From Nitrospirota bacterium (GTDB lineage: Bacteria > Nitrospirota > UBA9217): a stretch of DNA of 64,000 nucleotides. The stretch spans positions 640,001-704,000 of the forward strand of contig CAWIYV010000011.1 of the NCBI GenBank assembly GCA_963840455.1. Direction: 5' to 3'. Each line of letters opens with the position of its first letter. The stretch's first letter is position 1. The position numbers and the translations under genes are program-made. The notes under the pieces are model-generated. The model ran no database searches and was not told where the DNA came from. It worked only from the letters and a program-made list of their open reading frames with translations. This document shows positions 8,601 to 63,624 of the stretch, in pieces.

Positions 8601-8620
8601 TGGTGGAGGCGGCGGGAATT
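8601..8620 (-). repeat. tmRNA 3'-end copy (outermost att site)
   Basis: TGGTGGAGGCGGCGGGAATT, 20/20 match to 63275-63294, followed by TAATAGTTTGTCCAA. Confidence 0.95.
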
Positions 8621-8826
8621 TAATAGTTTGTCCAATCCCATGATATTCCGTAATTCTCTTGCTTTCCTGTGCTATTTTTTATCAGCCTGATTCTTGTGTT
8701 CACTTCTCAAACCAGCTTCCGAAGCAGCCATTCAAGCCCTATTTGGGAATAGTTTCGAACAAGGCTCGCTCCGGACATTCATATACGGCCTCCCATGCGA
8801 TAATTTCAAGAGAGGAGGTCAAGGAG

Positions 8827-9432
8827 CTAGTTCATCTTTACGCCATTCAGATAGATTTCATACTTCCTTACGCCCTTAAGAAACGTCGGGATGTGGTATG
8901 GTGTGTGCTTGTGCCAGTAAAGCGGCTTGAATTCCAATACCGCTTCTTCCCCGCTGCGAAGTGTGATGTCAGCGTCCACAATATAGTCGTCCTCCGGCAG
9001 TACAAAATATACCTTATGCGCTCCCTCACGTAGCCGGATCTTTCTTTCCAAAATATAACTTACTCCCGTCCCTGCCTCTGGGTCTCTGCTCGTATTTCCT
9101 TGCTCGTCATATGCAGGATCGACATCCTTCTGTCCGTCCACCTTCCAGACCACAGCCTGACCGTCGATGTTCAAGACAAATGGATAGCCCGGCTTTCCAT
9201 GCAGGCTTTTTCCCGACTCGTCGCTATGATAGCCTTCCACGTGGGTCTTAATGTTCGCTTTGACGACGAGGTCAATATAGCCTTGAGGTTTCGCGCCGGT
9301 ATCATTCATTTCGGTGAAAACGTCCGCCCTCTCGCTTTGTGACTTGGCGGCGATCATTTTTGCCGTCGCACCACAGCCTGCGAGGATCATAAGCAACAGG
9401 ACAACCGAAACATATGCATTTATTCTCTTCAT
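8827..9432 (-). CDS. Hypothetical lipoprotein
   Basis: MKRINAYVSVVLLLMILAG-C lipobox; last gene of the efflux operon. Confidence 0.75.
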   Translation of the reverse strand: MKRINAYVSVVLLLMILAGCGATAKMIAAKSQSERADVFTEMNDTGAKPQGYIDLVVKANIKTHVEGYHSDESGKSLHGKPGYPFVLNIDGQAVVWKVDGQKDVDPAYDEQGNTSRDPEAGTGVSYILERKIRLREGAHKVYFVLPEDDYIVDADITLRSGEEAVLEFKPLYWHKHTPYHIPTFLKGVRKYEIYLNGVKMN

Positions 9433-9517
9433 TTTCTTCTCCTTATTATATTGCGCTCTCGCCGTGTTCTCTGGTCTTGGTCCTGACCGCAATGACGCAT
9501 CAACTGACTGCCGCACG

Positions 9518-9860
9518 TCATATCGCATCTCTTCCTCTTTCATTTGTTCTTATCTTCACTATTTCATCCACATTGATCACAAATATTTTTCCATCGCCCG
9601 TATTTCCCGTATGGGCAACTTTCTGAATCACGTTGACGACATCAGCAACCATCTCATCACGTACAACAACTTCTAGTTTTATTCGCGGAACAAATTCCAC
9701 CATCTCATATACGATCTTTGTCTTTCGCATTCTTGGCCCTGCTTTTACCGAACCCTTTGATTTCCGATATCGTTACGCCCGGCAACCCTTCAATTTTGTG
9801 CAGCTCTTCCGTTACCTCCAGCAATTTGAACGGTCTTATTATTGCTTTTATCTCTTTCAT
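9518..9860 (-). pseudogene. P-II-like protein with a +1 frameshift
   Basis: MKEIKAIIRPFKLLEV...GVTISEIKGFG from ATG 9860; the other frame gives PRIKLEVVV...HTGNTGDGKIFV...IRTNERG. Length 343 nt = 3n+1, with an extra A near 9718. Confidence 0.8.
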
Positions 9861-9952
9861 GGTTTTTTCCTGTCCTTTCATTGATTCATGGAGAAGAAGT
9901 CATTGAAGCTCCCTGCAGCAAGCTACGGGGAATGCGCTCGCTCCTGGATTCA

Positions 9953-12900
9953 TCACATTTCTGCTTCGACCTTTCTCTTTTCAAACCAGCTGTAAACCGA
10001 AGGGATAATCAACAACGTAAGCAGCGTTGAAGTAAACAACCCGCCCACAACAACGGTAGCCAATGGCTTTTGTATTTCAGAACCGGTTCCGCTGGCCAGC
10101 AGCATCGGCAGTAAACTGAAAATTGATATTGATGCCGTCATCAATACCGGCCTTAATCGGTCAAGGCTTCCCTTTCTGATCGCCTCCTGCAGTTCATGTC
10201 CTTCTTCCCGCAATTGCGAGATGCGTGATACCAGCACCAGCCCATTCAAAACAGCAACGCCAAAAAGAACGATAAATCCAACTGACGCCGGCACGGACAA
10301 ATATTGCCCGGACAGATAGAGAGAGAAGACCCCGCCGATGAGTGCAAACGGCAGGTTGGAAATAACCAGCAGTGACAGACTGACCGATCTGAACGATAAA
10401 TACAGGAGAAGCATGATCAGGCCTACGGCCGCGGGTCCGATGATCATCAGTTTGGTCATCGCTCTCTGCTGGTTCTCAAATTGCCCGCCCCACGTAAGAT
10501 AATAGCCGGCCGGTAGTTTGACCTGAGCACTGATCTTCTGTTTTGCTTCGGCAACAAAGCTGCCGATATCCCGGCCCGTGATGTTCAGTTCAATACCGAT
10601 CCGGCGCATCCCGTCCTGGCGGCTGATCTGGACCGGCCCTTCAATCATCTTCACTTCAGCCAGCTGTTCGAGCGGAATATTGATGCCGGTTTTCGCGGTA
10701 ATCATCAGGTTCTTGATTGCTTCCAGGGAATTGCGCTTCTCCTCCGGCAGGCGCACAGTGATGGGGAAGTTGCGGTTTTCCTCGTACAGCTGCGATGCCG
10801 CCTTGCCGGCTACGGCAATCTCGATCACCTTCTGTACTTCACTGATGTTCAGGCCATAGCGGGCGATCTTCGAGCGGTCGATGTTGACGGTCAGGTAGGG
10901 CTGCCCGGAAACCTTTTCCGCATTCAGATCGGTGCCGCCTCTGATCGTGGAAAGCACCTTGGCGATCTTCGCCGATTTTTCGCTGAGCGCATTGATATCT
11001 TCGCCAAAGAGCTTGAGGATCAGCTGCGCCCGGGTGCCTGCCACCAGTTCGTCGATGCGGCACTGGATCGGCTGGCTGAATCCGAAGGTGATCCCCGCGA
11101 TCGACTCCAGCGATTTCCGCATCTTATTGGTCAACTCTTCTTTTGATATGTCCCGTTTCCATTTGCTCTTCGGTTTGAAGATCCCCACGTAGCCGGTCTT
11201 GTCCGTGCCTCGCGTGTCCAGGGCGACCCCGGTCTGTCCGATTCGTCCCACGATGGTATCCAATTCCGGGAACTGCTTTAGCTTGTCGGCAGCCTGCTGA
11301 TTCACCTCCATCGCTTTTGCCAGGGAAACTCCGGGAAGCATGGACACATCCATATCGAAAGCGCCTTCATCCATGATCGGGATGAATTCCGTCCCCAGTC
11401 GGGTTACCAGAAAGAGCGAAGCGACCAGGAGAGCTCCCGCTATGCCCAACACCACCTGTTTCCTGTTCATGGCATAATCGAGCATCGGCAGATAGAGCCG
11501 GTTTGCATGCCGCATGATGAAGCTCTCCTTTGACCGGTGCGGTTTCAGGAACAGGATACAGAGTGCCGGTATGACGAATACCGAGAGGAACAGCGAGGCG
11601 AGCAGGGCGATGGCGACCGTGATCGCCAATGGCCCGAACATCTTTCCTTCGATCCCTTCCAGCGAAAGGATAGGGATGAAGGTGAGCGCAATGATCAGTT
11701 CGCCGAAGATGCTCGGTTTTCTGACCTCCATGACCGCCCTGAGCACCGTAAATATTTTGGGGTGTCGGGCCCCCTCGTCACTCAGGTGCCGCTGGACGTT
11801 TTCAACCTGGATAATGGCAGTGTCGATGATCATTCCTATGGATATGGCCAGCCCCCCGAGAGACATCAGGTTTGCGCTGATCCCCGTAAGCTTCATGACT
11901 ATGAACGTTGCCAGGAGCGACAACGGTAATGCAATGAGAACCACGATACTGCCCCTGATGCTGTTCAGCAGCAGATAGAGCACGATCAGGACCAGCAGGG
12001 AACCCTCGATCAGCGCCTTGTTTACGGTGCTGACGCTCGCTTTCACAATATCGCTTCTGTCGTAATAGGGGACAATCCTGATCCCATCCGGGAGCACGTT
12101 GTTTTCGTTGATCTCCTTGACCTTTTCCGCAACCCGCCGCACCACGTCGCGGCTGTTTTCGCCGCGCAGCATCATGACGATGCCGCCGACACATTCATCC
12201 TTGCCGTTCTTTATGGCAGCGCCCATGCGGACAGCCTCGCCGATCTTGACCTGGGCTACGTCGCGAATAGAGGTCGGCGTCCCACCCGCCGATTTCAGGA
12301 CGATGTTTTCGATGTCCTTTACATCCTTTATCAGCCCTACTCCGCGGACAATAAACTGGTCTGCACCGCGTTCGAGCAGGTTCCCGCCGACGTTTTCATT
12401 ATTATTTCCGATCGCCGAAAACACCTCTTCCACAGTTACGCGGTGCTGCAGCAGCTTTTCCGGCGACACGATCACCTGGTACTGCTTGAAATACCCGCCG
12501 AAGGAGTTGATCTCGTTCACCCCGGCGACACTCTTCAGCTGCGGTGTGATGATCCACTCCTGAATGGTCCTCAGGTTGGTCAGGTAGGGAATCTTCTCCC
12601 GCGGGTCATCCGGCATAGTGCCTTCAAGGGTATATTGATAGATCTCACCCATGGCCGTGCCGATAGGTCCCATGGCGACCTCGACTCCCTTCGGAACCTT
12701 TTCCCGTGCCTCCGCCAGCCGTTCGAATACCAGCTGCCTGGCAAAATAGATATCAACATCATCCTTGAAGACGATTGTTACGATCGAGAGCCCGAACTTC
12801 GTGACCGAACGCATCTGCTCGATATCGGGCAGGCCGCGCATTGCCATCTCGATCGGGTAGGTTACATTTCGTTCGATCTCTATTGCCGATAGTCCGTCCG

Positions 12901-13057
12901 CGTGGCTGACAACTTCGACCTGGATGTTCGTAACGTCCGGAAAAGCATCTATCGGCAATTTCCAATAGGAGTACAATCCGGTTGTTACTATCAGAAGCGA
13001 AAGGAATATGACCATCCCTTTCTGCTTCAGCGTATATTCGATAATTTTTTCCAGCAT
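9953..13057 (-). CDS. czcA: CzcA/CusA-family heavy-metal RND transporter
   Basis: 1034 aa; LPIDAFPDVTNIQV, NLMSLGGLAI, RLRPVLMTA. Confidence 0.9.
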   Translation of the reverse strand: MLEKIIEYTLKQKGMVIFLSLLIVTTGLYSYWKLPIDAFPDVTNIQVEVVSHADGLSAIEIERNVTYPIEMAMRGLPDIEQMRSVTKFGLSIVTIVFKDDVDIYFARQLVFERLAEAREKVPKGVEVAMGPIGTAMGEIYQYTLEGTMPDDPREKIPYLTNLRTIQEWIITPQLKSVAGVNEINSFGGYFKQYQVIVSPEKLLQHRVTVEEVFSAIGNNNENVGGNLLERGADQFIVRGVGLIKDVKDIENIVLKSAGGTPTSIRDVAQVKIGEAVRMGAAIKNGKDECVGGIVMMLRGENSRDVVRRVAEKVKEINENNVLPDGIRIVPYYDRSDIVKASVSTVNKALIEGSLLVLIVLYLLLNSIRGSIVVLIALPLSLLATFIVMKLTGISANLMSLGGLAISIGMIIDTAIIQVENVQRHLSDEGARHPKIFTVLRAVMEVRKPSIFGELIIALTFIPILSLEGIEGKMFGPLAITVAIALLASLFLSVFVIPALCILFLKPHRSKESFIMRHANRLYLPMLDYAMNRKQVVLGIAGALLVASLFLVTRLGTEFIPIMDEGAFDMDVSMLPGVSLAKAMEVNQQAADKLKQFPELDTIVGRIGQTGVALDTRGTDKTGYVGIFKPKSKWKRDISKEELTNKMRKSLESIAGITFGFSQPIQCRIDELVAGTRAQLILKLFGEDINALSEKSAKIAKVLSTIRGGTDLNAEKVSGQPYLTVNIDRSKIARYGLNISEVQKVIEIAVAGKAASQLYEENRNFPITVRLPEEKRNSLEAIKNLMITAKTGINIPLEQLAEVKMIEGPVQISRQDGMRRIGIELNITGRDIGSFVAEAKQKISAQVKLPAGYYLTWGGQFENQQRAMTKLMIIGPAAVGLIMLLLYLSFRSVSLSLLVISNLPFALIGGVFSLYLSGQYLSVPASVGFIVLFGVAVLNGLVLVSRISQLREEGHELQEAIRKGSLDRLRPVLMTASISIFSLLPMLLASGTGSEIQKPLATVVVGGLFTSTLLTLLIIPSVYSWFEKRKVEAEM

Positions 13058-13088
13058 GATAGATGATCTCCCGCCCAGGAAAGGCTAA

Positions 13089-14351
13089 TTACTTGCCATG
13101 ACCATGTTCGTCGACGAGCTCGCCTTTTTTCAGCTCTGATTTGAGAATGAACGCGCCCTTGACGGCAACCGGCTCGCCCTTATTGAGTCCGCGAATTACT
13201 TCCAGACGCTTCCCCAACGTCCGGCCCACCGCTACCTCACGCATTTCGAACTTCTCCGGAGCGGTCTGAATGAAAACATAGTTCTTGGAACCGTCGAGAA
13301 AGACTGCCTCCTCAGGTATTATGATCGCTTTCTCCATCTGCATGCCCTTTGCGTCGATGGTCACGGTGGCGAACATGCCCGGTTTCAGGAGACGGTTCGC
13401 GTTCTCGACTTCCACGCGGGCCTTCACCGTTCGCGACTTTTCATCCATGATCTCGCCGAGATAGGATATAAAGCCCCGAAAGCTCTTCTCGGCATAGGCC
13501 GTTGTCGACACTTTGACCGCCGTACCCGACTTCACCCGCCCGAGATCTTTCTCGTAGATGTCTATGATCACCCAGAGCCTGGAGAGGTCGGCAACGATGA
13601 AGAGCGGTTTTTCGGGGCTCACGACTTCACCCTGTGTTGCCGTGCGCTCGATTACCGAACCGCTGATCGGCGAGGTCATAGCGATGAGCGGATGCTGATT
13701 ACCGCTCTGCTTGTTCCCGAACTGTTCGACATCAATCCCGAGCAGATGAAACTTCTCTTGCGCAAAGGTGAGGTCCGCCTCTGCCTCGGCCAGATCCTGT
13801 CGCGCCTTGATCACGTCCTTTTCCGGGGATATCTTCTTCGAGAACAAGGTTTCCTCGCGCTCAAGGTTCTTCCGCGCGAGTACGGCCCGGCCTTTCGCCT
13901 TCGCATATTCAGCCCATGCCTGCCCCAGCTCGGGGCTGTCGAACCAGGCAAGTGCCTGGCCGGTCTTTACCGCATCACCCTGGGACGCTACAATCTTCAC
14001 AAGCCGTCCCGAGGAGCGCGCGCTGATCTTCGCCACTCGGTCTCCGTCCAGCTCGATCGCGGCCGTCGCCTCGATGGGGGCTGAGAAAGGTTCCAGCGCT
14101 GCAGCCATAACTTCGACACCTGATGCCTTTTGCGCTTCTTCTGACAGGTGCACAACGGCTGCTTCCTCGCGGGTCTTTTCGTTTTCGTGCACCTCTGCAT
14201 GCTCCTTTTTTTCCGTCGATCCGTAAAACGACAGGACCGTGACGAGAAGTGCGATCGCACCAGCAGCTATGAGCGCTGATTTCCTGTTGCGCCGTGCTGT
14301 ATCTTCCATAGCTACCCATTTATCCCGGATCAATTCCTTCATGACCTTCAT
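13089..14351 (-). CDS. czcB: CzcB-like membrane fusion protein
   Basis: N-terminal TM, ADLSRLWV, LKPGMFA, His tail DEHGHGK; ATGA overlap with the upstream gene. Confidence 0.85.
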   Translation of the reverse strand: MKVMKELIRDKWVAMEDTARRNRKSALIAAGAIALLVTVLSFYGSTEKKEHAEVHENEKTREEAAVVHLSEEAQKASGVEVMAAALEPFSAPIEATAAIELDGDRVAKISARSSGRLVKIVASQGDAVKTGQALAWFDSPELGQAWAEYAKAKGRAVLARKNLEREETLFSKKISPEKDVIKARQDLAEAEADLTFAQEKFHLLGIDVEQFGNKQSGNQHPLIAMTSPISGSVIERTATQGEVVSPEKPLFIVADLSRLWVIIDIYEKDLGRVKSGTAVKVSTTAYAEKSFRGFISYLGEIMDEKSRTVKARVEVENANRLLKPGMFATVTIDAKGMQMEKAIIIPEEAVFLDGSKNYVFIQTAPEKFEMREVAVGRTLGKRLEVIRGLNKGEPVAVKGAFILKSELKKGELVDEHGHGK

Positions 14352-15574
14352 TTCTGGCTTCCTCCCGTTGCTTTTTCCCATGCGTTCAGCGCAAGCTGCA
14401 GCCGAACCTGCGACTCCAAATAGGCGAACTGGGCGTCGATGGTGTCCTTCTGCGCGAGCCGCACCTCAAAGAACCCGAATTTCCCCTCTTTGAAGGCTAG
14501 GTTCATGAGGCTCAGGTTTTCCATGGCCTTGCCGAGAACATCTTTCTTGAACAGGTTCAGCTCTTCCACCGCTGCTATGAGATTCGCGTGGGCTTCTTCG
14601 ATCTCCCGGACCACGATCCTCTCCAGAGACGCCTGTCTGATCAGGGCCTGCCCGGCTTTGGCAGCAGCCTCCTTCCGGTCCGCCTGCTTCCGGTCGAAGA
14701 AAGGAAGTGGGAACGACAGCATTACGCCTGCCTCGTTCAGCCCGGTGTCGCGGTTATAGAAACCTGAGACGGTAACGCTCGGAATCGCCTCGCGACCCGC
14801 CAGCTTCATGGCCGCTTTTGCCTGCTGAACCTCTGCGGCGGCGGATTGTACGTCGGATCGCTGCGGAGCGTCCGCGTCCCGGATCTTCTCCCTGTCGGGA
14901 ATAGCCGGGGTTTCCGATGGAAGCTCGCCTTCAACAGTGAAATCGGCAGATGGTTTCATGCCGAGAACCTCCTGCAGGCCGAGCAGCGCTTCCCGCCGCT
15001 CCCGCTCCGCGAGCATGCGATCACGCCTTGCTTTGCCGAGCTCCACATCGGCCAGATTCTGTTCGAGCGCCGAAATATCGCCTGTCTGGAACTTAACTGT
15101 TGCCGAGGCGACCAGTTCCTCCTGGAGCTTTACCGCTTCCTCTGCCAGGTCTATTTTCCGCTTTGCAGCAAGGGCTCGCGCAAAGGCGTCCTTGACCGCT
15201 GCAATAAGGACGCGCTCTCTGTCTCGAATGTCCAGGAGCGCCTTCTCCCGACCGCTTCTGGCGGCGTCTACGCGCAGGCCTCGTTGTCCCGCCAGCTCGA
15301 ATTCCTGAGATAGTCGTACTTCATAGTTTTTGGCCTTCTCGCCGCCGTCCGGCAGCGTGTCCTTCCTGGACAGACTTCCCTCGATAACCGGATTGCTTCT
15401 GAGCAACAACCCTGCCTGATCAAGTCTACCCTGGGCAGTGTCCTTCTCCAACCGGACGGACTGAAGGTCGGGATTGTTTTTGAGCGCCGTGTCCACCGCT
15501 TCGCCGACTGTTATGGCAAAGACCGGCTGCGCAAACAGCAATAAACTGCACGCAAAAATAGACATCCGTGTCAT
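14348..15574 (-). CDS. czcC: CzcC/TolC-family outer membrane factor
   Basis: Signal peptide, ALKNNPDL, LSQEFELAGQR, SFPLPFFDR. Confidence 0.85.
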   Translation of the reverse strand: MTRMSIFACSLLLFAQPVFAITVGEAVDTALKNNPDLQSVRLEKDTAQGRLDQAGLLLRSNPVIEGSLSRKDTLPDGGEKAKNYEVRLSQEFELAGQRGLRVDAARSGREKALLDIRDRERVLIAAVKDAFARALAAKRKIDLAEEAVKLQEELVASATVKFQTGDISALEQNLADVELGKARRDRMLAERERREALLGLQEVLGMKPSADFTVEGELPSETPAIPDREKIRDADAPQRSDVQSAAAEVQQAKAAMKLAGREAIPSVTVSGFYNRDTGLNEAGVMLSFPLPFFDRKQADRKEAAAKAGQALIRQASLERIVVREIEEAHANLIAAVEELNLFKKDVLGKAMENLSLMNLAFKEGKFGFFEVRLAQKDTIDAQFAYLESQVRLQLALNAWEKATGGSQK

Positions 15575-15689
15575 GAGTACACCTCACTTCGATTCAATTA
15601 ATTAGGAAAAGGGGCGCGAGCGCGCAAACACACACCGCACGACAAAGGTCGCTCGGGCACGATACGGATCATTGATAACGCTGCGGGGG

Positions 15690-16049
15690 TTAATTCTGAG
15701 GTGGCTTGGCGATGGAATACGAAGGGTCTGAAAATGCGATTAGCTTCGGGAGATGGTTCGTGTGGATGATCATAGACGGAGCGCCGCACCACGTATTAAC
15801 CACTGTAGCGGCGGTGTTGGCGCAAACGGGGCAAAGATCTTGCGCAGCGCTTGTTTCTTGCTGAGCGGGTCGATCGGCGTCAGACGACGAGATATTGGCA
15901 TCAGAATGATGCACGTCATCCGTAAAGCGCTGTTGCATATCCCGAAGCGGGACGATGTCCGCACAGTCGTCGCATGCAACCGCGTCCACTATAGGTGCGG
16001 CAATAACGCTTACCAGAAGAGTGAGTATGAGAAGTGATTTCAGCTGCAT
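15690..16049 (-). CDS. Small Cys/His protein (CzcI/DUF2946-like leader)
   Basis: Hydrophobic N-terminus, CDDC and CPVC motifs, C-terminal SIAKPPQN; directly upstream of czcC. Confidence 0.65.
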   Translation of the reverse strand: MQLKSLLILTLLVSVIAAPIVDAVACDDCADIVPLRDMQQRFTDDVHHSDANISSSDADRPAQQETSAAQDLCPVCANTAATVVNTWCGAPSMIIHTNHLPKLIAFSDPSYSIAKPPQN

Positions 16050-16204
16050 TAAGGTTGGATAATACGTCATTTTATCAAGCAACGCAATATCAAGTTAGGA
16101 TTATATTGGTCTTTATTATATCTATTGTAAAGCCTTAACGATGATAATTTATATCTAGGACGTGTGTGAAAGCCTCACAACTGGCGATTCAAATCCGAGT
16201 GGCA

Positions 16205-16485
16205 CATACCCTCAAAATTACCCCAACTTGTGATTGCTGGAAGACAAAAAAAGAGCTAAATCCGTTAGGGACTTAGCTCTGGTCTCCATCTGAGTTCGAT
16301 GGAGACTTTCGGAAAAAATCAAAATAACACTATTATATCAAATAGTTATTGTGGAGGAGGTGGGAATTGAATTGTTTGTCCAACCGCTCGATATTCCGCG
16401 TATATATTTTCGCGATATTACGAGATACCCCAAATAGATACCCCATGAAAGCTGGATGTTGTAAGACATTGCTGGACTAATTCGG
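16205..16485. repeat. Junction: type-A end, degenerate tmRNA copy (16349-16371), arm module
   Basis: 17/20 match to the core; IHF box TATCAAATAGTTA at 16336-16348; ATACCCC x2; ends CTGGACTAATTCGG. Confidence 0.9.
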
Positions 16486-18454: not shown

Positions 18455-18547
18455 CGCGCAACCTCCTTAGATAAGATATTTCCACGTTCTTGCGAATAGC
18501 TTGACTGCAGAATATACGAAGTGTCAGTAACTACATTATTGATAAAG

Positions 18548-55628: not shown

Positions 55629-56254
55629 TGTCGTTCTAGAAGCGCTTCCGGCTGGTCGTTCCGCGTGCTTATTGTATCAGAGATGAAGAATATTTTCCTC
55701 CAGATGTGGTTGCCGTGCAGGGCATGCATGATGACCGCGCCGACGTGAAACGACAAGAACACCGGTATAAGCACCATGCCGATCTCGTGCAGCTCCTTGA
55801 CATCATGAACGAGACCCCGAGTTTTTTGCCCCGGTTCCAGGTAGAAAAACAGATAGGCGCCTGTCGCTGCCACGAAAATAAACACCAGAAGACCGAATGT
55901 CTGGACCACACCGGCCAGGCCTTCGTGGGTGCTCCGGTCAGGCATGCGAAACTTCAGCAACCCTGAAATATCCTCAAGTACGAGTTTGATCCGCGCCGCC
56001 GTGAAAGGCATCCATCGCAGAAACTGTACGCTCCGGGGGCCGATGATCCCCGTGATCAGCCTCAGACCGGCAAAGGCCGCAAGACCCATGCCGAGCCAGC
56101 TGTGGACCGTAAATCCCGGGTGCATCATCCTTTTATAATCGTCGGCCATAAGGCCGGTAAGCCACGCTGTAAGGCCAAAGGCCAGGAGACCCAAGTGGAT
56201 GAGGATTGCAACAGGGCCTAGTTTGCTGTTCTTATCATCGATTTGTCTTGACAT
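55625..56254 (-). CDS. Cytochrome b/b6-domain membrane protein
   Basis: Four TM helices with spaced His residues (IH, VH, LHE, FH). Confidence 0.85.
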   Translation of the reverse strand: MSRQIDDKNSKLGPVAILIHLGLLAFGLTAWLTGLMADDYKRMMHPGFTVHSWLGMGLAAFAGLRLITGIIGPRSVQFLRWMPFTAARIKLVLEDISGLLKFRMPDRSTHEGLAGVVQTFGLLVFIFVAATGAYLFFYLEPGQKTRGLVHDVKELHEIGMVLIPVFLSFHVGAVIMHALHGNHIWRKIFFISDTISTRNDQPEALLERQ

Positions 56255-56309
56255 GGCATTCTTCCTCCTGCGTGTAAGACGGTAACCTGCCGCGGTATTA
56301 GCTGCCGAT

Positions 56310-56693
56310 TTATTTAGACCGCTTCACTTCAACCTCGTAGGCCGTAAATGTCTTGCCCGTGGTGTTGCCTTCAACTTCTACGTAGGCCCCGGCCTCTGCT
56401 CTGCCGTGCTTTTCCTTGATCTTCGTAGTTTTAGTCACAGCGACTTCCCTGCCGTTCACGACCCATATGCCGACGAGATCCTGCGGCACCTTTTCGATAA
56501 TTCCATAAATCTTGCTCTCATATTCGCCATGCTCCCGGTACTCACCGTCACGGCGACCTTCATGATCGCTGGCCAAGGCAGCTCCAGCCGCGAAAAACAT
56601 GCTAAGCAACGCCGCGGCCGCAATAAAGCTGGCCTTACGGCATGCCATCGTAATATTCGACTCCTCAACAAAATTCCGAGTATTAGATATCAT
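56310..56693 (-). CDS. Exported DUF5666-like protein
   Basis: Signal peptide, GIWVVNG...GAYVEVEG...AYEVEV. Confidence 0.7.
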   Translation of the reverse strand: MISNTRNFVEESNITMACRKASFIAAAALLSMFFAAGAALASDHEGRRDGEYREHGEYESKIYGIIEKVPQDLVGIWVVNGREVAVTKTTKIKEKHGRAEAGAYVEVEGNTTGKTFTAYEVEVKRSK

Positions 56694-57120
56694 GACATCC
56701 TCCTTTAATTCCGGTGAAATAGAATTCGGTTGTCCAATCCTTTGATGTTGTTGCGATACTATCACAGTGGAGATTAAGGGAAGATTAGAACATCAAGCGA
56801 TACATTTACTGGTTGATTTTGAACAGTAATGAAACTGGCGGGAACATTCTGATGTTGAACTTGACTAACCGAGACAATTTCGATAAATTCCATCTATCAA
56901 AATCCGAAGAGTTGGATGCAATTAACTCATCGCAGGTTTAAATATTTCCCATTCAATTAATATTAATGTCTCGATCGGCGAAGGTATAGAGGTGTTGACT
57001 TGATAATGAATGTTCTTCTGGATAGGGACATGAGAAACCATAAAGAAGCTGGCAATTCAAGTCCTGAGCAGTGAATTAAACCCGCATCCAAGAAATCCAC
57101 TTATATTAGCTTGCTCCATT

Positions 57121-57469
57121 TAATAATTCGTCCAATCACTTGTATTACTGTCACTACTTGCAGCGCGATCTATTTCAACATACCCTAAAAACTACCCCAA
57201 CTTGTGAATGCTAGAAAACAAAAAGAGAGCCAAATCCTTTAAGGACTTAGCTCCAGTTCCCATCTGTGTTCGATGGAGTCGATAGAGACTTTCGGAAAAA
57301 ATAAAAATATCACTGCAATATCAAATAGATATGGTGGAGGCGGCGGGAATTGAATAGTTTGTCCAACCGATTGAAATTCCACGCTGAGTATTTTGGCGTT
57401 AAATCGACATACCCCGAATTAATACCCATAAAAAGCTGGATGTCATAAGATCTTGTTGGACTAATCTGG
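57121..57469. repeat. Junction: full type-A end, tmRNA copy (57332-57354), arm module
   Basis: 23/23 match to 63275-63297; TAATAATTCGTCCAA at 57121; ends TTGGACTAATCTGG. Confidence 0.95.
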
Positions 57470-57630
57470 TCCTCGGAGGACATCTATCCTTTTCGGTTTG
57501 CTCTCGTGCAGAGTTTTCGTATTCTTAGCACAGAGCATGATCCTTTGATAAAACATCAATTAGATTACTGATCAGCTTGACAGGGGCATATCGTTCGATT
57601 ACTATTTAAGCCACAAGGTGAAAGCTCGCC

Positions 57631-57918
57631 ATGAAGATATCATATCTGACACTCATTAATATCTTTCTATTTTGTTTTATTGCAATGGCATGCATTGCAC
57701 ATCCTCTGGAAATGTGCAATGAGACATCCGCGCCTAATTCGTCAGTATGCTCAATCAGTGACACGCTTGAGAATCACGATAATGACTCAGATCAGGATTT
57801 TGAAATTCACACCTATAAGACACGCCCGACACCTGTGCGCAGCGCCGCTATCAACAACTCGATGTTTATGCCAGTATTGGTCAGTTCCATTTTCACTCCT
57901 CCGCAGTTTCTTTCCTGA
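57631..57918 (+). CDS. Small exported-type leader protein ending SIFTPPQ
   Basis: Hydrophobic N-terminus, Cys/His/Asp-rich middle; TTGACA promoter upstream at about 57577. Confidence 0.55.
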   Translation: MKISYLTLINIFLFCFIAMACIAHPLEMCNETSAPNSSVCSISDTLENHDNDSDQDFEIHTYKTRPTPVRSAAINNSMFMPVLVSSIFTPPQFLS

Positions 57919-58096
57919 TAATAATCCAGCCTCGTTTGCTATCAACGTGACACGTTTTTCGTTACGGTGAACGCCGCATTATCGTAATACAGGAATCGCG
58001 CGATCGGTGCGTGGAGAAAGGGCTCTCCTTTGACGAGTTGTTGAGCGAATACAATCCGATCGCACCTATATTGAGAATCGTCAGGAGGTTATTGCC

Positions 58097-58372
58097 ATGA
58101 AATGCCCTATATGTACATCCATTGATCTTGTTATGACCGACAGGCAGGGTGTGGAAATCGACTACTGTCCTACATGCCGGGGTGTCTGGCTGGATCGAGG
58201 CGAACTGGACAAAATAATCGAACGGTCGTACAGCCAGGTAGCACCGGCTGCTCCGGTCACCCAGCACGATGCGCGTACGATTAAGAATGAGACCGACCAT
58301 CATCATGAGGATGAGCACCATAGCGGGGGCCACAAGAGACGCAAATCATGGATGGGCGAGCTGTTTGATTAG
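58097..58372 (+). CDS. zf-TFIIB zinc-ribbon protein
   Basis: MKCPIC...EIDYCPTCRGVWLDRGELDKII; His-rich segment. Confidence 0.9.
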   Translation: MKCPICTSIDLVMTDRQGVEIDYCPTCRGVWLDRGELDKIIERSYSQVAPAAPVTQHDARTIKNETDHHHEDEHHSGGHKRRKSWMGELFD

Positions 58373-58462
58373 CAGTATCAGGCATGAGGATGGAGACATC
58401 TCCATCCTCATATTGACTTAACAGTCTTTCGTTCAACGCGCTTTGAGAGGAGGTCCACCAAC

Positions 58463-58960
58463 ATGAATAAAAGGCTTATTGGCCTGCTGATAGTCATGTC
58501 GATGGTTCCATTGCTTATGGCACTGGATAATCACGGCGAAAGCGAATCACTTTTAAAGGTCACGAATAACACCTATAAAAATACCTGTGGGTCCTGTCAT
58601 ATGGCATATCAAGCGGGTCTATTGCCTGAGCGATCTTGGTTGAAAATACTTAATTCCGGCGGCCACGTCGGAGGTGATGTTTCTCTTAATCGGGAAGCAA
58701 AGGCTGAAATAGAGAAATATCTCGTTCAAAACAGTGCGGATAAAATTCCGTCAAAAAGATCGCAAAAAGTATTGGCTTCGATCGGCAATAATGCTCCCAC
58801 AAGAATTTCGGAAATCCCCTATATCAAGAAGAAGCACCGTGATATCAGCGAAGATATTTTCGCTAGAAAGACCATAAGATCTCGGGCTAAATGCAGCGCA
58901 TGTCATAAGCGTGCAGATAGCGGCATATATGATGAAGAAGATGTGATAATTCCCAAGTAG
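58463..58960 (+). CDS. Diheme cytochrome c (DHC family)
   Basis: CGSCHMAYQAGLLP.RSW, CSACH. Confidence 0.88.
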   Translation: MNKRLIGLLIVMSMVPLLMALDNHGESESLLKVTNNTYKNTCGSCHMAYQAGLLPERSWLKILNSGGHVGGDVSLNREAKAEIEKYLVQNSADKIPSKRSQKVLASIGNNAPTRISEIPYIKKKHRDISEDIFARKTIRSRAKCSACHKRADSGIYDEEDVIIPK

Positions 58961-58980
58961 CCAAAGGAGGTCCTACAATT

Positions 58981-59544
58981 ATGGGATTCGGCAAGAAAAT
59001 AGTATACCGCGCGTGTGAACTGTCGCGTGACAACCCACGCCGGATGAAGAAAATCATCCTTTATGCCGGTGTGATATTATTGTGTTGTATCATGGTTGCA
59101 GGTCTTCTGATTTATTCTGCGATCAGCGGCTTGAAAAGCCTCGCTGCGTCATCGCCCGATCTTGACCTGCTTGCATTGCAGGAGCTTCTCAAAAATAAGG
59201 GGTTGATTCTTAGTGAGACGCAAAAGACGCAGATTATACCCCTTGTACAGAGAATGTCGCGGGAAACAGCGCTGGCCGACCGGGCAGCCTTGAAGAAACA
59301 GCTCGTTGGACTTCTAGATCCCATCCAGATTCAGAAGATGGATGAGTGGAAAACCGAGGTCACCAAAAAGGCTGGGGAATTTACCTCAACCCCGCATTAT
59401 ATCGTTTCCGTTATAGAACGCTATACCGGCATCTCGGTGAAGCCATTGAAGGGATGGATTGATGCGTTATTCTCGTGGTGGAAAATAACAAAACCAGAGA
59501 ATAACGCGCAAGGACTCAACGAGGCTTTAAAGAAGAAGGAGTAA
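58981..59544 (+). CDS. Hypothetical membrane-anchored protein
   Basis: SD AGGAGG; single TM. Confidence 0.6.
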   Translation: MGFGKKIVYRACELSRDNPRRMKKIILYAGVILLCCIMVAGLLIYSAISGLKSLAASSPDLDLLALQELLKNKGLILSETQKTQIIPLVQRMSRETALADRAALKKQLVGLLDPIQIQKMDEWKTEVTKKAGEFTSTPHYIVSVIERYTGISVKPLKGWIDALFSWWKITKPENNAQGLNEALKKKE

Positions 59545-59566
59545 CACTAGTCCGCCGGACAATGCG

Positions 59567-62128
59567 ATGAAGATTGACACTGAAATAAAGAAATATATCG
59601 GCCTCACCACCCATGACGCCTCACGGATACTGGCGGAGGAAGGCCCGAACGAACTGCCTTCAGCAAAGCCGCGCAGCATTTGGAAGATTGCTTTTGAAAT
59701 CATGAGAGAGCCGATGTTTCTTCTGTTGGTTGCGTGCGGCATCGTCTATCTGGTCATCGGCGACCGCGAGGAAGCGTTGATGCTGATCGCCTTCGTGTTC
59801 TTTGTCATGGGCATTACGCTTTATCAGCAACGCAAAACTGAGCGGGCGCTCGAAGCGCTGCGCGATCTTTCGAGCCCTCGTGCAGCGGTCGTCCGCGACG
59901 GCTCCCGTCTGCGCATACCTGGCCGCGAGGTCGTTCGAGGAGATATCATCTTTCTGGCGGAAGGCGACCGGGTTCCCGCAGATGCCGTTGTGCTCGAATG
60001 CTCGAATCTGACCCTCGACGAGTCGCTTCTTACCGGCGAATCCGTAGCGGTCAGAAAAAGAGCCGGTACCCCGTCCGCGCCCTCTTCGCGGCCTGGCGGC
60101 GATGATCTGCCGCATGTGTTCTCCGGAACGCTCGTGGTTCAAGGCCAGGGCATAGCTCAGGTATCTGCAACAGGCGCCAGGAGTGCCATCGGCACAATCG
60201 GCACGCAACTTCAAACGGTAACCGATGAGGAGACGCTGCTCCAACGGGAGACAGGGAAACTTGTCCGAATCCTTGCGCTGGCTGTATCCGGACTATGTCT
60301 TCTGCTCTTCGTGATCCATGTGATCATACGCGGAGCCTGGCTTGACGGCATCTTGAGCAGCTTAACGCTTGCCATGGCGGTTATGCCGAACGAACTGCCG
60401 GTTGTTCTTACTATTTTTCTCGCGCTCGGCGCCTGGCGCTTGTCCCTCCAGAGGGTGCTGACGAGAAACGCTCCGGTCATAGAAACGCTGGGCTCGGCCA
60501 CGGTGTTGTGCGTGGACAAAACCGGCACACTTACCGTTAATCAAATGTCGGTCGGTATGTTATATTCGGGTGGTTCATTTCATAATGTTCAGGACTACAC
60601 CTGCGGTCCGCCGCCTGATAAATTCCATGATCTTGCTGAATTCGGCATTCTTGCCAGCCAGCGCGACCCGTTCGATCCTATGGAGAGGGCCATCAAAAAG
60701 TTCGGCGAAGAGTATCTGGCCCGTACAGAACACCTTCATGGAGACTGGCGATTGGAGCGGTCATATCCTCTCTCGCCTGAGCTTCTGGCCATGTCTCACG
60801 TTTGGCGATCACTCGACGGCAGTGACTACGTCATCGCGGCCAAAGGGGCTCCGGAGGCTGTCGCCGATCTGTGCCATTTCAGTACGGAACAGCTGTCAGC
60901 GTTGAATCAGACAGTGATGAAGATGGCCGATCAGGGTCTGCGTGTGCTGGGCGTCGCCCGCTCCCGCTTCAAGGAGGAAAGCCTCCCCGGACAGCAGCAT
61001 GATTTTACCTTTGAATTTCTCGGGCTCATAGGCCTCATTGATCCGGTGCGTCCTACGGTGGCAGCGGCACTTCAGGATTGTTATCGGGCAGGCATGAGAA
61101 TGATCATGATCACCGGGGACTACCCCGGAACAGCGCGCAACATAGCACGTCAGATAGGGCTCAAGAACCACGAGACCGTGATCACCGGGCCGGAGCTGGA
61201 TGCGCTCAGCAACGAGGAACTGAGCCGCCGAATCACCGACGTGGACATATTTGCCCGGGTCGTGCCAGAACAAAAACTCCGCCTCGTGACCGCGCTCAAA
61301 GCCAACGGCGAGATAGTGGCGATGACCGGCGACGGGGTGAATGATGCACCTGCGCTCAAAGCTGCCCATATCGGCATCTCCATGGGTGAAAGAGGCACTG
61401 ATGTGGCCCGTGAGGCATCCGATCTTGTCCTGCTTGATGATGATTTCGCCTCCATCGTCCGCTCTGTCAAAATGGGCAGAAGGATCTTTGACAACCTGAA
61501 GAAAGCAATGGCCTACCTCCTGGCTATCCACATCCCAATCGCCGGAATGTCACTGCTTCCGGTGCTTTTCAAATGGCCGCTGCTGTTCATGCCAATTCAC
61601 ATTGCATTCCTGCACCTGATTATCGATCCGGCATGTTCCGTCGTGTACGAGGTGGAGCCTCCCGAGGACGGCGTTATGAACAGAAAACCGCGCTCTCCTA
61701 ACGAACCGCTATTCAATCGGCAGGTTCTCCTGCTCAGCACCCTCCAGGGAATCGGCGTACTGATGATCTTATTCGTTGTTTACGGAGTTACACTCGTCAG
61801 GGGGCAGGGTGAATTGGAAGCGAGGACACTTGCCTTCACCACGCTTATCATCGCCAATCTCGGACTGATGTTGACGAACCGTTCCTGGACCGCGTCAATA
61901 TTCCAGATGATCAGAAAACCGAATGCCGCACTCTGGTGGGTGACGGCTGGCGCACTGCTGTTCCTCTGGCTCACCGTGGCGGTTCCTGCTGTCCGCAGTG
62001 TTTTTCGCTTTTCAGTGCTTCACAGCCTAGACGTTTTCATATGTATTATAGCCGGATGCATAAGTATTCTTTGGTTTGAGCTGTTTAAGCGCATCAGAAG
62101 CGGCAAGGCAATTCGTTTGCAGACTTGA
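59567..62128 (+). CDS. P2-type cation-transporting ATPase
   Basis: LTGES, DKTGTLT, KGAPE, TGDGVNDAPALK; TM4 PNELP. Confidence 0.95.
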   Translation: MKIDTEIKKYIGLTTHDASRILAEEGPNELPSAKPRSIWKIAFEIMREPMFLLLVACGIVYLVIGDREEALMLIAFVFFVMGITLYQQRKTERALEALRDLSSPRAAVVRDGSRLRIPGREVVRGDIIFLAEGDRVPADAVVLECSNLTLDESLLTGESVAVRKRAGTPSAPSSRPGGDDLPHVFSGTLVVQGQGIAQVSATGARSAIGTIGTQLQTVTDEETLLQRETGKLVRILALAVSGLCLLLFVIHVIIRGAWLDGILSSLTLAMAVMPNELPVVLTIFLALGAWRLSLQRVLTRNAPVIETLGSATVLCVDKTGTLTVNQMSVGMLYSGGSFHNVQDYTCGPPPDKFHDLAEFGILASQRDPFDPMERAIKKFGEEYLARTEHLHGDWRLERSYPLSPELLAMSHVWRSLDGSDYVIAAKGAPEAVADLCHFSTEQLSALNQTVMKMADQGLRVLGVARSRFKEESLPGQQHDFTFEFLGLIGLIDPVRPTVAAALQDCYRAGMRMIMITGDYPGTARNIARQIGLKNHETVITGPELDALSNEELSRRITDVDIFARVVPEQKLRLVTALKANGEIVAMTGDGVNDAPALKAAHIGISMGERGTDVAREASDLVLLDDDFASIVRSVKMGRRIFDNLKKAMAYLLAIHIPIAGMSLLPVLFKWPLLFMPIHIAFLHLIIDPACSVVYEVEPPEDGVMNRKPRSPNEPLFNRQVLLLSTLQGIGVLMILFVVYGVTLVRGQGELEARTLAFTTLIIANLGLMLTNRSWTASIFQMIRKPNAALWWVTAGALLFLWLTVAVPAVRSVFRFSVLHSLDVFICIIAGCISILWFELFKRIRSGKAIRLQT

Positions 62129-62159
62129 GATGTTGACTGGCCATTCAATACGTCAATTC

Positions 62160-63062
62160 CTATTTCCGCAGGCTTGTATCTCCACGCCTGCAAACCAGCA
62201 CCGAGCAGTCGGCATGGCCAAGGATATTCCGGGCTACGCTTCCGAGCATACCGCTGAAACCGCGCATACCCCGGCTGCCGAGAGCGATGATTTGCGCCCG
62301 CGTTTCCCGCGCCGCCTGGAGTATCTGGTCCGCCGGATCTCCGTTTCTGATTAGCACCGCCGTGTTCCTGAACTTCTCCCGCAACCGAGTTCGTGCCTGG
62401 TCGAGGACTTTTTCGGCGTGAGCCGTCTCCGCCAGCCTCATACCTTCAGCGATCTTGTTAAGCCGTTCGTCCATCCCCGGATAGAACCGTTCGGGAATAT
62501 CCATATACGTTGAAGGCGAGACATACACAGCGGTGAGGCTCGTTTCAGGATAAAATGGTATCAGGGATAATACTTTTTCTGTTTCCTCAGCGCAGGCCGA
62601 ACCGTCTGTGGGAAAGAGCACGTTGAGTGGCCCGTCCTGTTTACCCTGGAACGGCTTGATGACGAGGACGGATTGCTCTGAGTTGATCACCACGGCCCGC
62701 GTCACGCTCCCGAGAAAAAATGAACCGACCGCCTTCATGCCCCGGTTGCCCATGACGATGATATCTGAGGCGGACCTCCTGCCCGCTGCAAGAATTGCAT
62801 CGGCCGGATGGCCCCTGGTCACTAAGGTGGAGACGTACGCCCCGAGGTCTTTCAATAGTCCGGCGGTCTCGTCTACAATCATAGGCGCCAGTTCCTCGCC
62901 GAGCTGCATCAAGGCCTTTAGGTAAGACCCACTGCTGTGGGGAACGTTAGGTATGACGTACAGCACTGTGATCTCATCGGCCTGCGAGAACTTGAACCGC
63001 CCAAGAAAACGGGCCGCGCTATCGGAGTATTTCGAACCGTCTGTGGCAAACAGTATTTTCAT
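62160..63062 (-). CDS. Tandem-domain universal stress protein
   Basis: ATDGS...MGNRG...LGSV, occurring twice. Confidence 0.92.
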   Translation of the reverse strand: MKILFATDGSKYSDSAARFLGRFKFSQADEITVLYVIPNVPHSSGSYLKALMQLGEELAPMIVDETAGLLKDLGAYVSTLVTRGHPADAILAAGRRSASDIIVMGNRGMKAVGSFFLGSVTRAVVINSEQSVLVIKPFQGKQDGPLNVLFPTDGSACAEETEKVLSLIPFYPETSLTAVYVSPSTYMDIPERFYPGMDERLNKIAEGMRLAETAHAEKVLDQARTRLREKFRNTAVLIRNGDPADQILQAARETRAQIIALGSRGMRGFSGMLGSVARNILGHADCSVLVCRRGDTSLRK

Positions 63063-63164
63063 CGGTCGCCTCCTTGTTATACCAAACCTGCCCGTTCCCA
63101 CCTTTTATCAGTATAGCAGTATAGAAAACCCAGATTCCCGAAAAATGCCCTTCATGCTAATGTT

Positions 63165-63198
63165 AAAAAAAGAGCTAATTCCTAATAGGAATTAGCTC
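63165..63198 (-). terminator. Unit-supplied intrinsic terminator for ssrA
   Basis: Minus strand GAGCTAATTCCT-ATT-AGGAATTAGCTC-TTTTTTT. Confidence 0.88.
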
Positions 63199-63274
63199 AA
63201 ATTCGCGAAAGTCTATAGGGTGGCAGGCTTGCCTAAAGACAAAAAATATCCATTAGAATCAATGACTTATTAAA

Positions 63275-63624
63275 TGGTGGAGGCGGCGGGAATTGAACCC
63301 GCGTCCGAAAACCTTCAACCGAAAGCTCATACATGCTTATCCCCTCGTTTACAGCTCTCGCTTCCTCCGGCGCCTCAGGGAAAGCTCCGGGATCAGCCAG
63401 CCCGGTAGTTCTTATCGCTCCGCCCCGGACATAGCGAAGAGACCAGCCCGAATTGTGACATCTCTTCAGCCGCTCAGGCGGCAGCCGGGAGACGCGCTAC
63501 TTAGTTAAGCAGCGTATGCCAGTTCGTTATTGGCAGTTCTATTTTGCCATGTGTTTTACGAGCCCCATGGCACCTCGGCATGCAACTCCCGATCTCTCGA
63601 TCCCCGTCGAAGCCAGTCGCCCCC
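63275..63624 (-). ncRNA. ssrA: tmRNA
   Basis: 5' GGGGGCG...CTTCGAC; 3' GGGTTCAATTCCC-GC-CGCCTCC-A-CCA with G3:U pair; tag ANNELAYAA* at 63534-63505; 350 nt. Confidence 0.97.

Follow-up and report, generated by a model that had tools for sequence, protein, structure and literature searches.

A tandem array of at least nine units, spanning about 105.6 kb from C11:597638 to the tmRNA gene ssrA, lies at the 3′ end of that gene in a Nitrospirota genome, and we hold it to be somewhat probable that these are non-autonomous, CIME-like, ssrA-specific units that share one attachment-site family and depend on a recombinase acting in trans. The window, that is the whole stretch of 64,000 nucleotides that was analysed, has a single tmRNA gene by ARAGORN and Rfam, for which ARAGORN gives the tag peptide ANNELAYAA. 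On the + strand the last 20 nt of this gene were found with 0 mismatches at 8601, 26400, 51408 and 57332, with 2 mismatches at 20773 and with 3 at 16349, which makes seven matches including the gene itself; no match occurred in 100 of 100 shuffles (0 expected). A full ssrA accompanied by six 3′ copies in direct orientation is the arrangement by which islands at tRNA and tmRNA genes are recognised. A preliminary description had reported the six copies at these positions, and the unit sizes it gave were reproduced from the tail coordinates (7.7, 4.4, 5.6, 25.0, 5.9 and 5.9 kb). Its array was also taken to end at 8601; the units inside the window stand but this outer end does not, because beyond the window there are perfect copies at C11:621401 and C11:618819 and a degenerate one at C11:597638. 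In all, five more junctions lie beyond the window. An isolated relic of the tail is present at C11:302727 and another copy sits on contig C5. The most decayed copies are the outermost ones (597638, 302727 and the outer copy of the related genome G066). The features in the window are as follows.

63275-63624, minus strand: ssrA (tmRNA gene), intact; ARAGORN and Rfam RF00023 (200 bits, model 1-374)
63125-63274, minus strand: P′ arm type B of the ssrA-proximal unit, like the left flanks of 26400 and C11:618819; its hairpin 63166-63201 is the terminator now ending ssrA
57332-63274, minus strand: unit u9, 5.9 kb; core 57332-57351, P arm about 57352-57490; cargo dihaem cytochrome c, P-type ATPase, tandem-Usp protein
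51408-57331, minus strand: unit u8, 5.9 kb; core 51408-51427, P arm to about 51570, full P′ arm type A 57114-57331; cargo histidine kinase/response regulator, cytochrome b561, DUF5666, two ORFs without Pfam match
26400-51407, minus strand: unit u7, 25 kb; core 26400-26419, P arm to about 26560, P′ arm type A 51200-51407; cargo RND pump, DegP-like protease, M16 peptidase, Slp, S41 peptidase, glucoamylase, glucose dehydrogenase, MFS, VirJ, MprF, MsrAB
20773-26399, minus strand: unit u6, 5.6 kb; core 20773-20792 (2 mismatches), P arm to about 20920, P′ arm type B 26293-26399; cargo KatG-type peroxidase, Fur/PerR-family regulator
16349-20772, minus strand: unit u5, 4.4 kb; core 16349-16368 (3 mismatches), P arm to about 16520, full P′ arm type A 20563-20772 with terminator 20702-20676; cargo porin, MOT1-type molybdate transporter
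8601-16348, minus strand: unit u4, 7.7 kb; core 8601-8620, truncated P arm 8621-8650, P′ arm type A 16204-16348 with terminator 16280-16252; cargo RND efflux operon (OMP, MFP, AcrB-like)
C11:621401 (beyond the window) to window position 8600: unit u3, ending in a P′ arm of type C; cargo inside the window DUF11 giant protein (1-5856) and AraC-type response-regulator paralogues (5926-8305)
8451-8600, minus strand: P′ arm type C that ends unit u3, with hairpin 8577-8538

The cargo is low in G+C and foreign, the array units having a G+C content of 50-56%, the flanks 61-63% and the genome 58%. Over the whole array it consists of efflux, oxidative-stress, envelope, transport, metal and defence genes (more than 100 kb in one genome), arranged in units of up to 27 kb and up to 15 genes on both strands, with their own regulators (Fur/PerR family, two-component system) and terminators. 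All-against-all BLASTP of the array ORFs found no protein family common to the units, which bears out the earlier observation of unrelated cargo between shared ends. On the chromosomal side, the region upstream of ssrA is syntenic in G002, G005, G007 and G011, and the distance from the far flank (C11:582948-586548) to ssrA is about 10 kb in G007 vs. about 117 kb here. Contig C5 is a 96-99% variant of this far flank that runs straight into hairpin, core and P arm, and is strain variation inside the assembly. The genes adjoining ssrA on the non-array side are housekeeping genes (proC-, YggS-, YfiH-, radical-SAM- and FKBP-type). A 373-aa ORF (L012:751-1872) considered as a platform gene by ssrA was rejected, as it looks like an antisense artefact.

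Every internal junction has the order P′ arm, core, P arm, which gives it the look of a rebuilt attP; the whole module measures 350-400 nt and includes direct-repeat boxes. The P′ arm (about 125-210 nt) carries the ssrA terminator, and terminator-like hairpins on the ssrA strand were present in every P′ arm scanned, and the type C hairpin recurs on contig C5, where it adjoins the core, and in G066, where it lies at the outer boundary. The P arm (about 170 nt) has its boxes at fixed offsets. Within the arms we identified the box GTCCAA at +29, the box ATACCCC both at +76/+89 and at -143/-131, and tandem repeats of 20 nt (TTGGAYG...ATAAGAC); these look like putative binding sites of a recombinase or accessory protein. 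Box order and offsets are kept across 7 genera, and therefore point to protein recognition. Arms of units with unrelated cargo are 75-90% identical and no pair exceeds about 90%, so there is no sign of a recent event in this genome. Several junctions share an unbroken identity of up to about 37 nt over the core and its adjoining box. Compared with its relatives, the P arm at 8601 has lost about 115 nt from its interior. The conserved non-coding ends that had been described next to the tail copies are thus present on both sides, and the claim of one end family for the units is supported. We also considered the P arm as a structured RNA, which was rejected since it has no Rfam match and no consensus fold (RNAalifold on 24 P arms, RNA parameters, + strand: -0.56 kcal/mol, 5 invariant pairs, no covariation).

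The search for a recombinase gave the following picture. Among 41 ORFs scanned with Pfam between 8601 and 63275, there was no integrase, transposase, relaxase, phage or T4SS family. Six-frame searches of the whole genome with PF00589 and PF00239 had no match on contig C11, and our own 10-seed recombinase HMM had none in the array. At E≤0.001 an integrase remnant was found in 0 of the at least nine units here and in no unit of 13 relatives with P arms. The lack of integrase, relaxase, phage gene and transposase noted earlier from the letters therefore holds in the 41 ORFs and six-frame scans, and the lack of integrase remnants at this threshold. For the relatives, arms were located in 64 genomes of the order, PF00589 was searched in 15 of these and PF00239 in 5; no recombinase was found beside the same arms over this set. 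Likewise, none of 48 metagenome loci with arms bears an integrase, a result that rests on our own 10-seed HMM because the Pfam tally of these loci consists of the 25 commonest of 119 families, and three pattern scans found no arm motif in viral contigs. The integrase flanked by the same ends that the preliminary description expected was hence not found in the 64 genomes searched for arms, the 48 metagenome loci or the viral contigs. PF00239 has 0 matches in this genome and in 4 of 5 P-arm relatives, the fifth having none on its ssrA contig. Only two intact tyrosine recombinases are present in this genome, both Xer-like, and these two are the sole ones common to all P-arm genomes examined; G000 and G065 have no further intact tyrosine recombinase, and G000 also has no serine recombinase. 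No dif-like dyad was visible by eye in the junction.

Three helper candidates were rejected. A tyrosine recombinase of about 480 aa is present in 39 of the 64 genomes and broken (a pseudogene) in this one; seven genomes with P arms (G007, G024, G042, G053, G056, G065, G019) lack it and two without P arm (G002, G005) have it, so its presence is unlinked to P arms, and no core, arm or tRNA was found at its loci. A recombinase of about 290 aa (G007, G024, G042, G057, G071) has no nearby arms and in G042 adjoins tRNA-Lys. ClusterA, a conserved 205-aa protein found beside the P arm in other genera, was considered as a hidden recombinase; it has no Pfam match and no PDB sequence match, its predicted models (pLDDT 60 from 10 sequences, which is poor, and 82 from 43 sequences) gave nothing in Foldseek at E≤0.001, with sigma-E region 2 as the best local match, and its paralogue in this genome adjoins an Eco57I-type restriction enzyme. 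We read ClusterA as defence-associated and not as a recombinase.

P arms were found in 14 of the 64 genomes (7 of 19 genera) with 70-82% identity, and the ssrA genes of these genera are 79-84% identical. The variable cassette content and order that had been predicted at ssrA was found among related strains, at the junctions. The left neighbour of u4 is a P′C arm in G000 and L084, P′A in L067 and P′B-like in L077, and in L079/L080 u4 is missing with a 0.45-kb mini-unit in its place. Strain differences fall exactly at junctions, but indels within a unit and away from junctions also occur (L088 vs. u1), and L082 is without exactly 223 nt between two 17-nt repeats, TTTAATAGTTTGTCCAA; part of the variation may come from plain homologous recombination. 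Three junctions were found again with both neighbours in independent contigs (L083, L084, L045), that of u6 in L083 at 91.6%. In other genera, a 4-kb unit of three genes adjoins ssrA, and its AEP-TOTE/helicase protein shows 88-92% identity from genus to genus; for neighbouring housekeeping proteins of the same genera the figure is about 50-57%, in alignments of only 197-267 residues. At the sequence level this unit suggests that cassettes may have moved between genera. The read check covered 8 runs, all as Logan contigs (best word share 0.23), of which four aligned to 45000-64000; the contigs of these four, of low depth and none spanning a unit, showed neither an excision product nor a circle nor an empty site. 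One run (X3) gave odd joints at 51093>63165, 51336>57331 and 63182>57331, mostly 90-95% alike, which we rejected as excision because their sides are short (31-35 nt) with foreign letters in between; we read them as paralogous junctions of other organisms.

These observations are best explained by an attachment-site family that targets the segment from the T-loop to the 3′ end of the tmRNA gene. A circular unit with P arm, 20-23-nt ssrA tail and P′ arm would recombine site-specifically at the ssrA 3′ end, where its tail copy and terminator-bearing P′ arm would rebuild a complete ssrA. The old tail would be pushed outward, so that the insertion site is regenerated and the next unit could enter; the 3′ end of ssrA is this regenerated site (attL core). 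With units loaded through ssrA tail and P′ arm, every internal junction would read P′-core-P as a rebuilt attP. No unit encodes the recombinase, which would for that reason have to act in trans; it is presumably of the tyrosine integrase type, and the units may still be mobile at present. Non-autonomous cassettes loaded in trans had been proposed earlier, and the single end family, the absence of integrases and the strain variation agree with this, though no integrase with the same ends was found.

If a few old site-specific events had been followed mainly by homologous recombination, that is by RecA-type crossovers between junction modules after DNA uptake, no dedicated recombinase would be needed today. 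The identical stretches of core and box, the loss in L082 between its TTTAATAGTTTGTCCAA repeats, the internal deletion in the u4 P arm, the indels of L088 and the helper not found would all fit, yet we consider this unlikely: arms only 75-90% alike are a poor substrate, the ordered boxes in 7 genera point to protein recognition, and the own ssrA tail and terminator of each unit would be left unexplained. Quite unlikely in our judgement is a host-served, integron-like platform, on which a chromosomal recombinase unlinked to ssrA, e.g. the Xer-like pair or an unrecognised enzyme, loads and unloads the units. The distribution of the Xer-like pair, with G000 and G065 having no other candidate of that class, is consistent with such a platform, as are the conservation of arms over genera and the apparent spread of one unit between genera with no recombinase aboard; the housekeeping neighbours of ssrA speak against it, as may the junction, in which no dif-like dyad was seen by eye, and known Xer-exploiting elements use dif, not ssrA.

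The trans-acting reading must also be set against a fossil array, in which ordinary integrase-bearing islands each lost their integrase and are now fixed chromosome. Decay is strongest in the outermost copies, no arms are identical, and the pseudogene of about 480 aa reveals that recombinase decay does happen in this genome. But with remnants at E≤0.001 in none of the units here or in the 13 relatives, arms about as conserved between genera as ssrA, and units of close strains differing at junctions, we find it decidedly unlikely. An assembly artefact from repeats collapsed or chained in a metagenome bin is highly improbable, even though the genome is a bin with strain variation and many related contigs break at junctions: the junction modules differ by 10-25% and are therefore not collapsible repeats, the array lies inside a contig of 924,579 bases, and three junctions are independently reproduced.

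The closest precedent is described by McMurdie et al. 2011 (PMC3146451), namely the ssrA islands of Dehalococcoides, where several tandem islands lie downstream of a single ssrA with 20-bp direct repeats of its 3′ end (all within about 100 kb), extra conservation around the repeat, adaptive cargo and insertion deduced to be in the T-loop. There, 16 of 31 islands have a six-gene integration module including the large serine recombinase DsiB, and the other 15, without the module, are suggested to be cis-mobilizable; tandem ssrA islands with 20-bp repeats are thus known already, and half of those islands carry no integration genes. As there, 20-bp ssrA repeats bound tandem units here, nine within 105.6 kb. 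Unlike in those islands, neither the DsiB module nor any other recombinase was found in units of any genome examined, the arms measure about 170 and 125-210 nt, and the ssrA terminator is present in each P′ arm. CIMEs, as defined in PMC5704250, are decayed ICEs or IMEs that are mobilised with a related functional element beside them. The units share with them retained attL- and attR-type ends, the lack of integration and transfer genes and tandem accretion at a target gene's 3′ end, but the 64 genomes, 48 metagenome loci and viral contigs yielded no functional ICE or IME of matching att specificity, no decay remnants were seen, and the units are integrase-less across the whole order in the genomes examined. 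For Islander (PMC4383910), an intact target with displaced direct 3′ fragments marks island ends, as found here, and tmRNA is the most enriched target; it requires an integrase gene per island and has only 4 tandems of at least 3 among 3919 islands, whereas here at least nine units have no integrase. Given this requirement the array would go unreported. Tycheposons of Prochlorococcus (bioRxiv 10.1101/2020.12.28.424599) are cargo elements at tRNA/tmRNA genes that similarly build variable islands, with tandem junctions and excision seen in cultures; they encode their own recombinase, and the units here none.

Tandem islands at tRNA/tmRNA genes are normally detected and explained via integrases, and in this uncultured Nitrospirota order ssrA-specific units with elaborate conserved ends have no recombinase in any member examined. 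If the units are mobile, there is a helper or route that integrase-based island finders miss, and a sizeable share of the accessory genome is invisible to them; if immobile, the conservation of the arms calls for another explanation.

In integrons, the tyrosine recombinase gene intI adjoins the primary insertion site, attC sites are short, imperfect inverted repeats that are recognised in folded, single-stranded form, and cassettes are mostly promoterless, single-gene and read from a common promoter. The array resembles chromosomal integrons in stockpiling unrelated cargo serially at one regenerated site, in cassettes without own recombinase and with strain-variable content. It differs in having no intI by the insertion site (PF00589 has no match on C11), direct-repeat boxes in long junctions instead of attC-type hairpins, and multi-gene, two-strand units with regulators and terminators, no common promoter being evident. 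The integron-like system of the preliminary description therefore fails on integrase, attC and cassette structure. It is rather doubtful that the order as a whole has ssrA-targeting cassettes that never carry a recombinase, dock at the tmRNA T-arm, are loaded and exchanged by an unlinked host enzyme or a new kind of recombinase, and move between genera; if true, this would be a functional counterpart of the integron built from different parts. IMEX, the Xer-exploiting elements, integrate at the chromosomal dif via a dif-like attP, and the target here is ssrA.

The window contains a single tmRNA gene, identified by ARAGORN and matched over the full Rfam model with 200 bits; the Rfam scan gave no other match.

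63275-63624, minus strand, ssrA (tmRNA gene)

The last 20 nt of this gene, as read on the plus strand, occur seven times in the window including the gene itself, all in identical orientation, with no mismatch at 8601, 26400, 51408 and 57332, two at 20773 and three at 16349, while 100 shuffles of the sequence gave no match. The unit sizes proposed in the preliminary description agree with these coordinates. Its shared non-coding ends were also recovered, as both flanks of the six displaced copies are conserved in an alignment of the seven places and in the repeat families. In the plus-strand reading (ssrA runs the opposite way), each displaced copy is bordered on its right by a conserved P arm of about 170 nt with the blocks AATAGTTTGTCCAA, GATATT, ACATACCCC-N6/7-ATACCCC, AAAATGCTGGATGTCATAAGAC and TTGGACTAATTCGG. 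Its left neighbour is a P' arm of about 125-210 nt, in which a stem-loop and the T-run that follows it on the ssrA strand make up a predicted terminator immediately downstream of the tail copy. The P' arms fall into three types.

8577-8538, 16280-16252 and 20702-20676, P' terminator hairpins
63166-63201, hairpin of the ssrA gene itself
16349, 20773, 51408, 57332 and C11:621401, P' type A
26400, C11:618819 and the real ssrA gene, P' type B
8601 and contig C5, P' type C

Within the full type A arm the initial 85 nt of the P arm are repeated (family D12), GTCCAA and ATACCCC boxes included, and the box offsets from the core (the 20-nt tail copy) are fixed, at +29 for GTCCAA and at +76/+89 and -143/-131 for ATACCCC. 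Consensus folding of 24 P arms, drawn from 14 genomes, reached only -0.56 kcal/mol with 0 covarying pairs. As there is neither a consensus fold nor an Rfam match, the arms look like arrays of protein-binding sites rather than RNA.

The genome (G000) is a bin of 4.03 Mb in 14 contigs, of which the window takes up C11:640001-704000. It was searched for further copies with the junction modules in BLASTN and with a mismatch scan. Core and P arm recur in perfect form at C11:621401 and 618819, in degenerate form at 597638, and once more on contig C5, outside the array contig. Since copies reach down to C11:597638, the array holds at least nine units up to ssrA, spanning 105.6 kb (21.2, 2.6, 27.2, 7.7, 4.4, 5.6, 25.0, 5.9 and 5.9 kb); the copies reported earlier within the window thus stand, and the outer limit then given does not. 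The outermost 21-kb unit is probably composite, as it contains at C11:606880-607797 a tandem-Usp gene together with a piece of type B arm, 81% identical to 62168-63077 of the window, which suggests a pair of units whose junction has eroded. Four relatives show synteny on the ssrA-upstream side, and housekeeping genes lie on the other side of ssrA; from the far flank (C11:582948-586548) to ssrA the distance is about 10 kb in the relative G007 as against about 117 kb in G000. Contig C5 (7.7 kb; L011 1-7677) is a 96-99% variant, with indels, of the far flank C11:581595-586865; towards the end of the contig this flank runs straight into a terminator hairpin, a copy of the ssrA tail with 1 mismatch, and a P arm. 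C5 represents another strain of the bin, in which the array has a different distal end. An isolated, decayed relic of core (4 mismatches) and P arm is also present 295 kb off the array, at C11:302727-302900 (L010, about 9727-9900), preceded by a fourth P' type that is also found in G042 (L033) and within the array of metagenome contig L080.

As assigned by Pfam, the window cargo covers transport (two RND efflux systems, a porin, a MOT1 molybdate transporter, MFS and a P-type ATPase), stress (KatG-type peroxidase with a Fur/PerR-family regulator, MsrAB, Usp), peptidases and envelope (DegP-, M16- and S41-type peptidases, Slp, MprF), and also VirJ, glucoamylase, glucose dehydrogenase, a two-component pair and cytochromes. 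The outer units carry ABC/LolA-like proteins, TauE, two ArsP permeases, an SBF/Acr3-type carrier, a methyltransferase, a Kelch giant, AsmA, ExbB, a DUF11 giant and AraC-type response regulators. No protein family common to the units was found by all-against-all BLASTP. The G+C content is 50-56% in the units, 61-63% in the flanks and 58% in the genome. It may be noted that three tandem paralogous AraC-type response-regulator genes lie at 5926-8305 (DNA repeats of 666-782 nt, 69-90% identity), some of which look truncated; the related contig L079 aligns with another copy pattern.

Integrase, transposase, relaxase and phage families had no match by Pfam in the 41 window ORFs and 20 outer-unit ORFs scanned. 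A six-frame search of the whole genome with PF00589 found nothing on C11, the array contig; it returned two full-length genes (C1, C9), scoring like the Xer pair of every relative, and four short remnants (C14, C10, C4, C7). PF00239 had no match in the whole genome, and the earlier claim of integrase-less units is borne out. A custom 10-seed recombinase HMM recovered the PF00589 genes and a broken recombinase of about 480 aa (C7:124436-125585). This tyrosine recombinase, with a SAM_4 domain, extends over C7:124436-126379 (L092 8436-10379) and is interrupted by a PDDEXK_3 gene; its family, syntenic in G002 and G005, occurs in 39 of the 64 genomes of the order, often multicopy and located at contig ends. 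It was rejected as the helper since its distribution does not track P-arm presence, and a family of about 290 aa was rejected as unrelated. G000 looks complete at 4.03 Mb, its only two intact tyrosine recombinases being Xer-like and serine recombinases numbering 0. Its load of recognisable mobile-element enzymes is unusually low beside a foreign array of 100 kb.

P arms were found in 14 of the 64 genomes (7 of 19 genera), typically 1-2 per genome against 11 in G000; a looser query gave 18 of 64, several matches being the ssrA tail alone. In 15 relatives, comprising G002, G005 and the 13 that have P arms, no PF00589 match was near ssrA or a P arm, the closest lying at 14 kb (G042, beside tRNA-Lys), 60 kb (G002) and about 200 kb (G071). 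PF00239 was absent from four of five relatives tested, and the fifth had it on a contig other than that of ssrA. Pattern scanning of metagenome contigs yielded 48 loci, 4 without BLAST support and 2 being contigs of G007 and G011. The custom HMM detected no recombinase in ORFs of at least 50 aa of loci L021-L091, and three scans of viral contigs gave nothing. Hence the integrase flanked by the same ends, which the preliminary description named as support, was absent from the relatives, metagenome loci and viral contigs searched. The metagenome Pfam tally covers 142 of 166 ORFs of at least 120 aa (the omitted 24 come from the four unsupported loci), and the 25 commonest of its 119 families include sulfatase, helicase, AEP-TOTE and response regulators, among others.

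Site-specific accretion of non-autonomous units, with a putative helper acting in trans, is the most likely reading, and we hold it with moderate confidence. Tandem elements with an attP of the form P-core-P' would leave such a junction layout, each incoming element rebuilding ssrA with the tail copy and P' arm that it carries, and shifting the previous ssrA tail outward. Related contigs of 85-95% identity carry the same units in different settings, as had been anticipated for unit content and order at ssrA. The RND efflux unit (u4, from 8601) is preceded by a type C arm in G000 and L084, type A in L067 and a type B-like arm in L077, while in L079/L080 a type C arm leads through a 0.45-kb mini-unit to the cargo of the porin/MOT1 unit (u5), u4 being missing. 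L082 (2050-2330 against window 20480-20960) joins u5 to the peroxidase unit (u6) minus 223 nt between two 17-nt TTTAATAGTTTGTCCAA repeats; the missing 223 nt are the P' arm and core, and this junction is thus without an ssrA tail copy. That the units were shuffled by homologous recombination is the foremost of the rivals, itself unlikely, followed by a platform served by the host, for example by Xer, and then by a fossil array, both improbable. An assembly artefact is highly improbable, as three G000 junctions recur in L083, L084 and L045, which argues against misassembly.

The nearest precedent for accretion at ssrA, as described in PMC3146451, is the Dehalococcoides ssrA islands, which are tandem, inserted at the T-loop and bounded by a 20-bp repeat; 16 of 31 have a serine-recombinase module, and the 15 without are suggested by those authors to be CIMEs (cis-mobilizable elements, defined in PMC5704250). 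Islander, according to PMC4383910, requires an integrase in every island; its 3919 islands include 4 tandems of at least three. Our literature search found no published description of such an array in Nitrospirota.

In six relatives (G002, G007, G011, G057, G066, G053) the unit adjoining ssrA encodes an 800-aa AEP-TOTE/SF2-helicase protein and a 73-aa ORF, with a family-less 205-aa protein in several of them; G000 is without this unit. The conserved 4-kb unit lies beside ssrA in four extracted loci of other genera.

L031 6137-9545, AEP-TOTE unit
L028 11352-14413, AEP-TOTE unit
L023 5488-8188, AEP-TOTE unit
L021 5513-8275, AEP-TOTE unit

The AEP-TOTE/helicase protein of G066 is 88% identical to that of G002 and 92% to that of G057, far more conserved than the housekeeping proteins by ssrA (about 50-57% when G066 is compared with other genera, the alignments spanning only 197-267 residues). 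The unit has therefore probably spread horizontally, each time into ssrA and each time without a recombinase. The 205-aa family has 569 metagenome clusters, every one named 'hypothetical', and no Pfam match. The protein was rejected as a recombinase since it has no such fold (pLDDT 82, no Foldseek match at E<=0.001, a local likeness to sigma region 2). A paralogue in G000 (55% identity; C11:203341-203946, minus strand; L094 7296-7946) lies immediately downstream of a 957-aa Eco57I/MmeI-type restriction-modification enzyme, with a TumE-family toxin gene nearby, and these neighbours suggest a defence-linked role.
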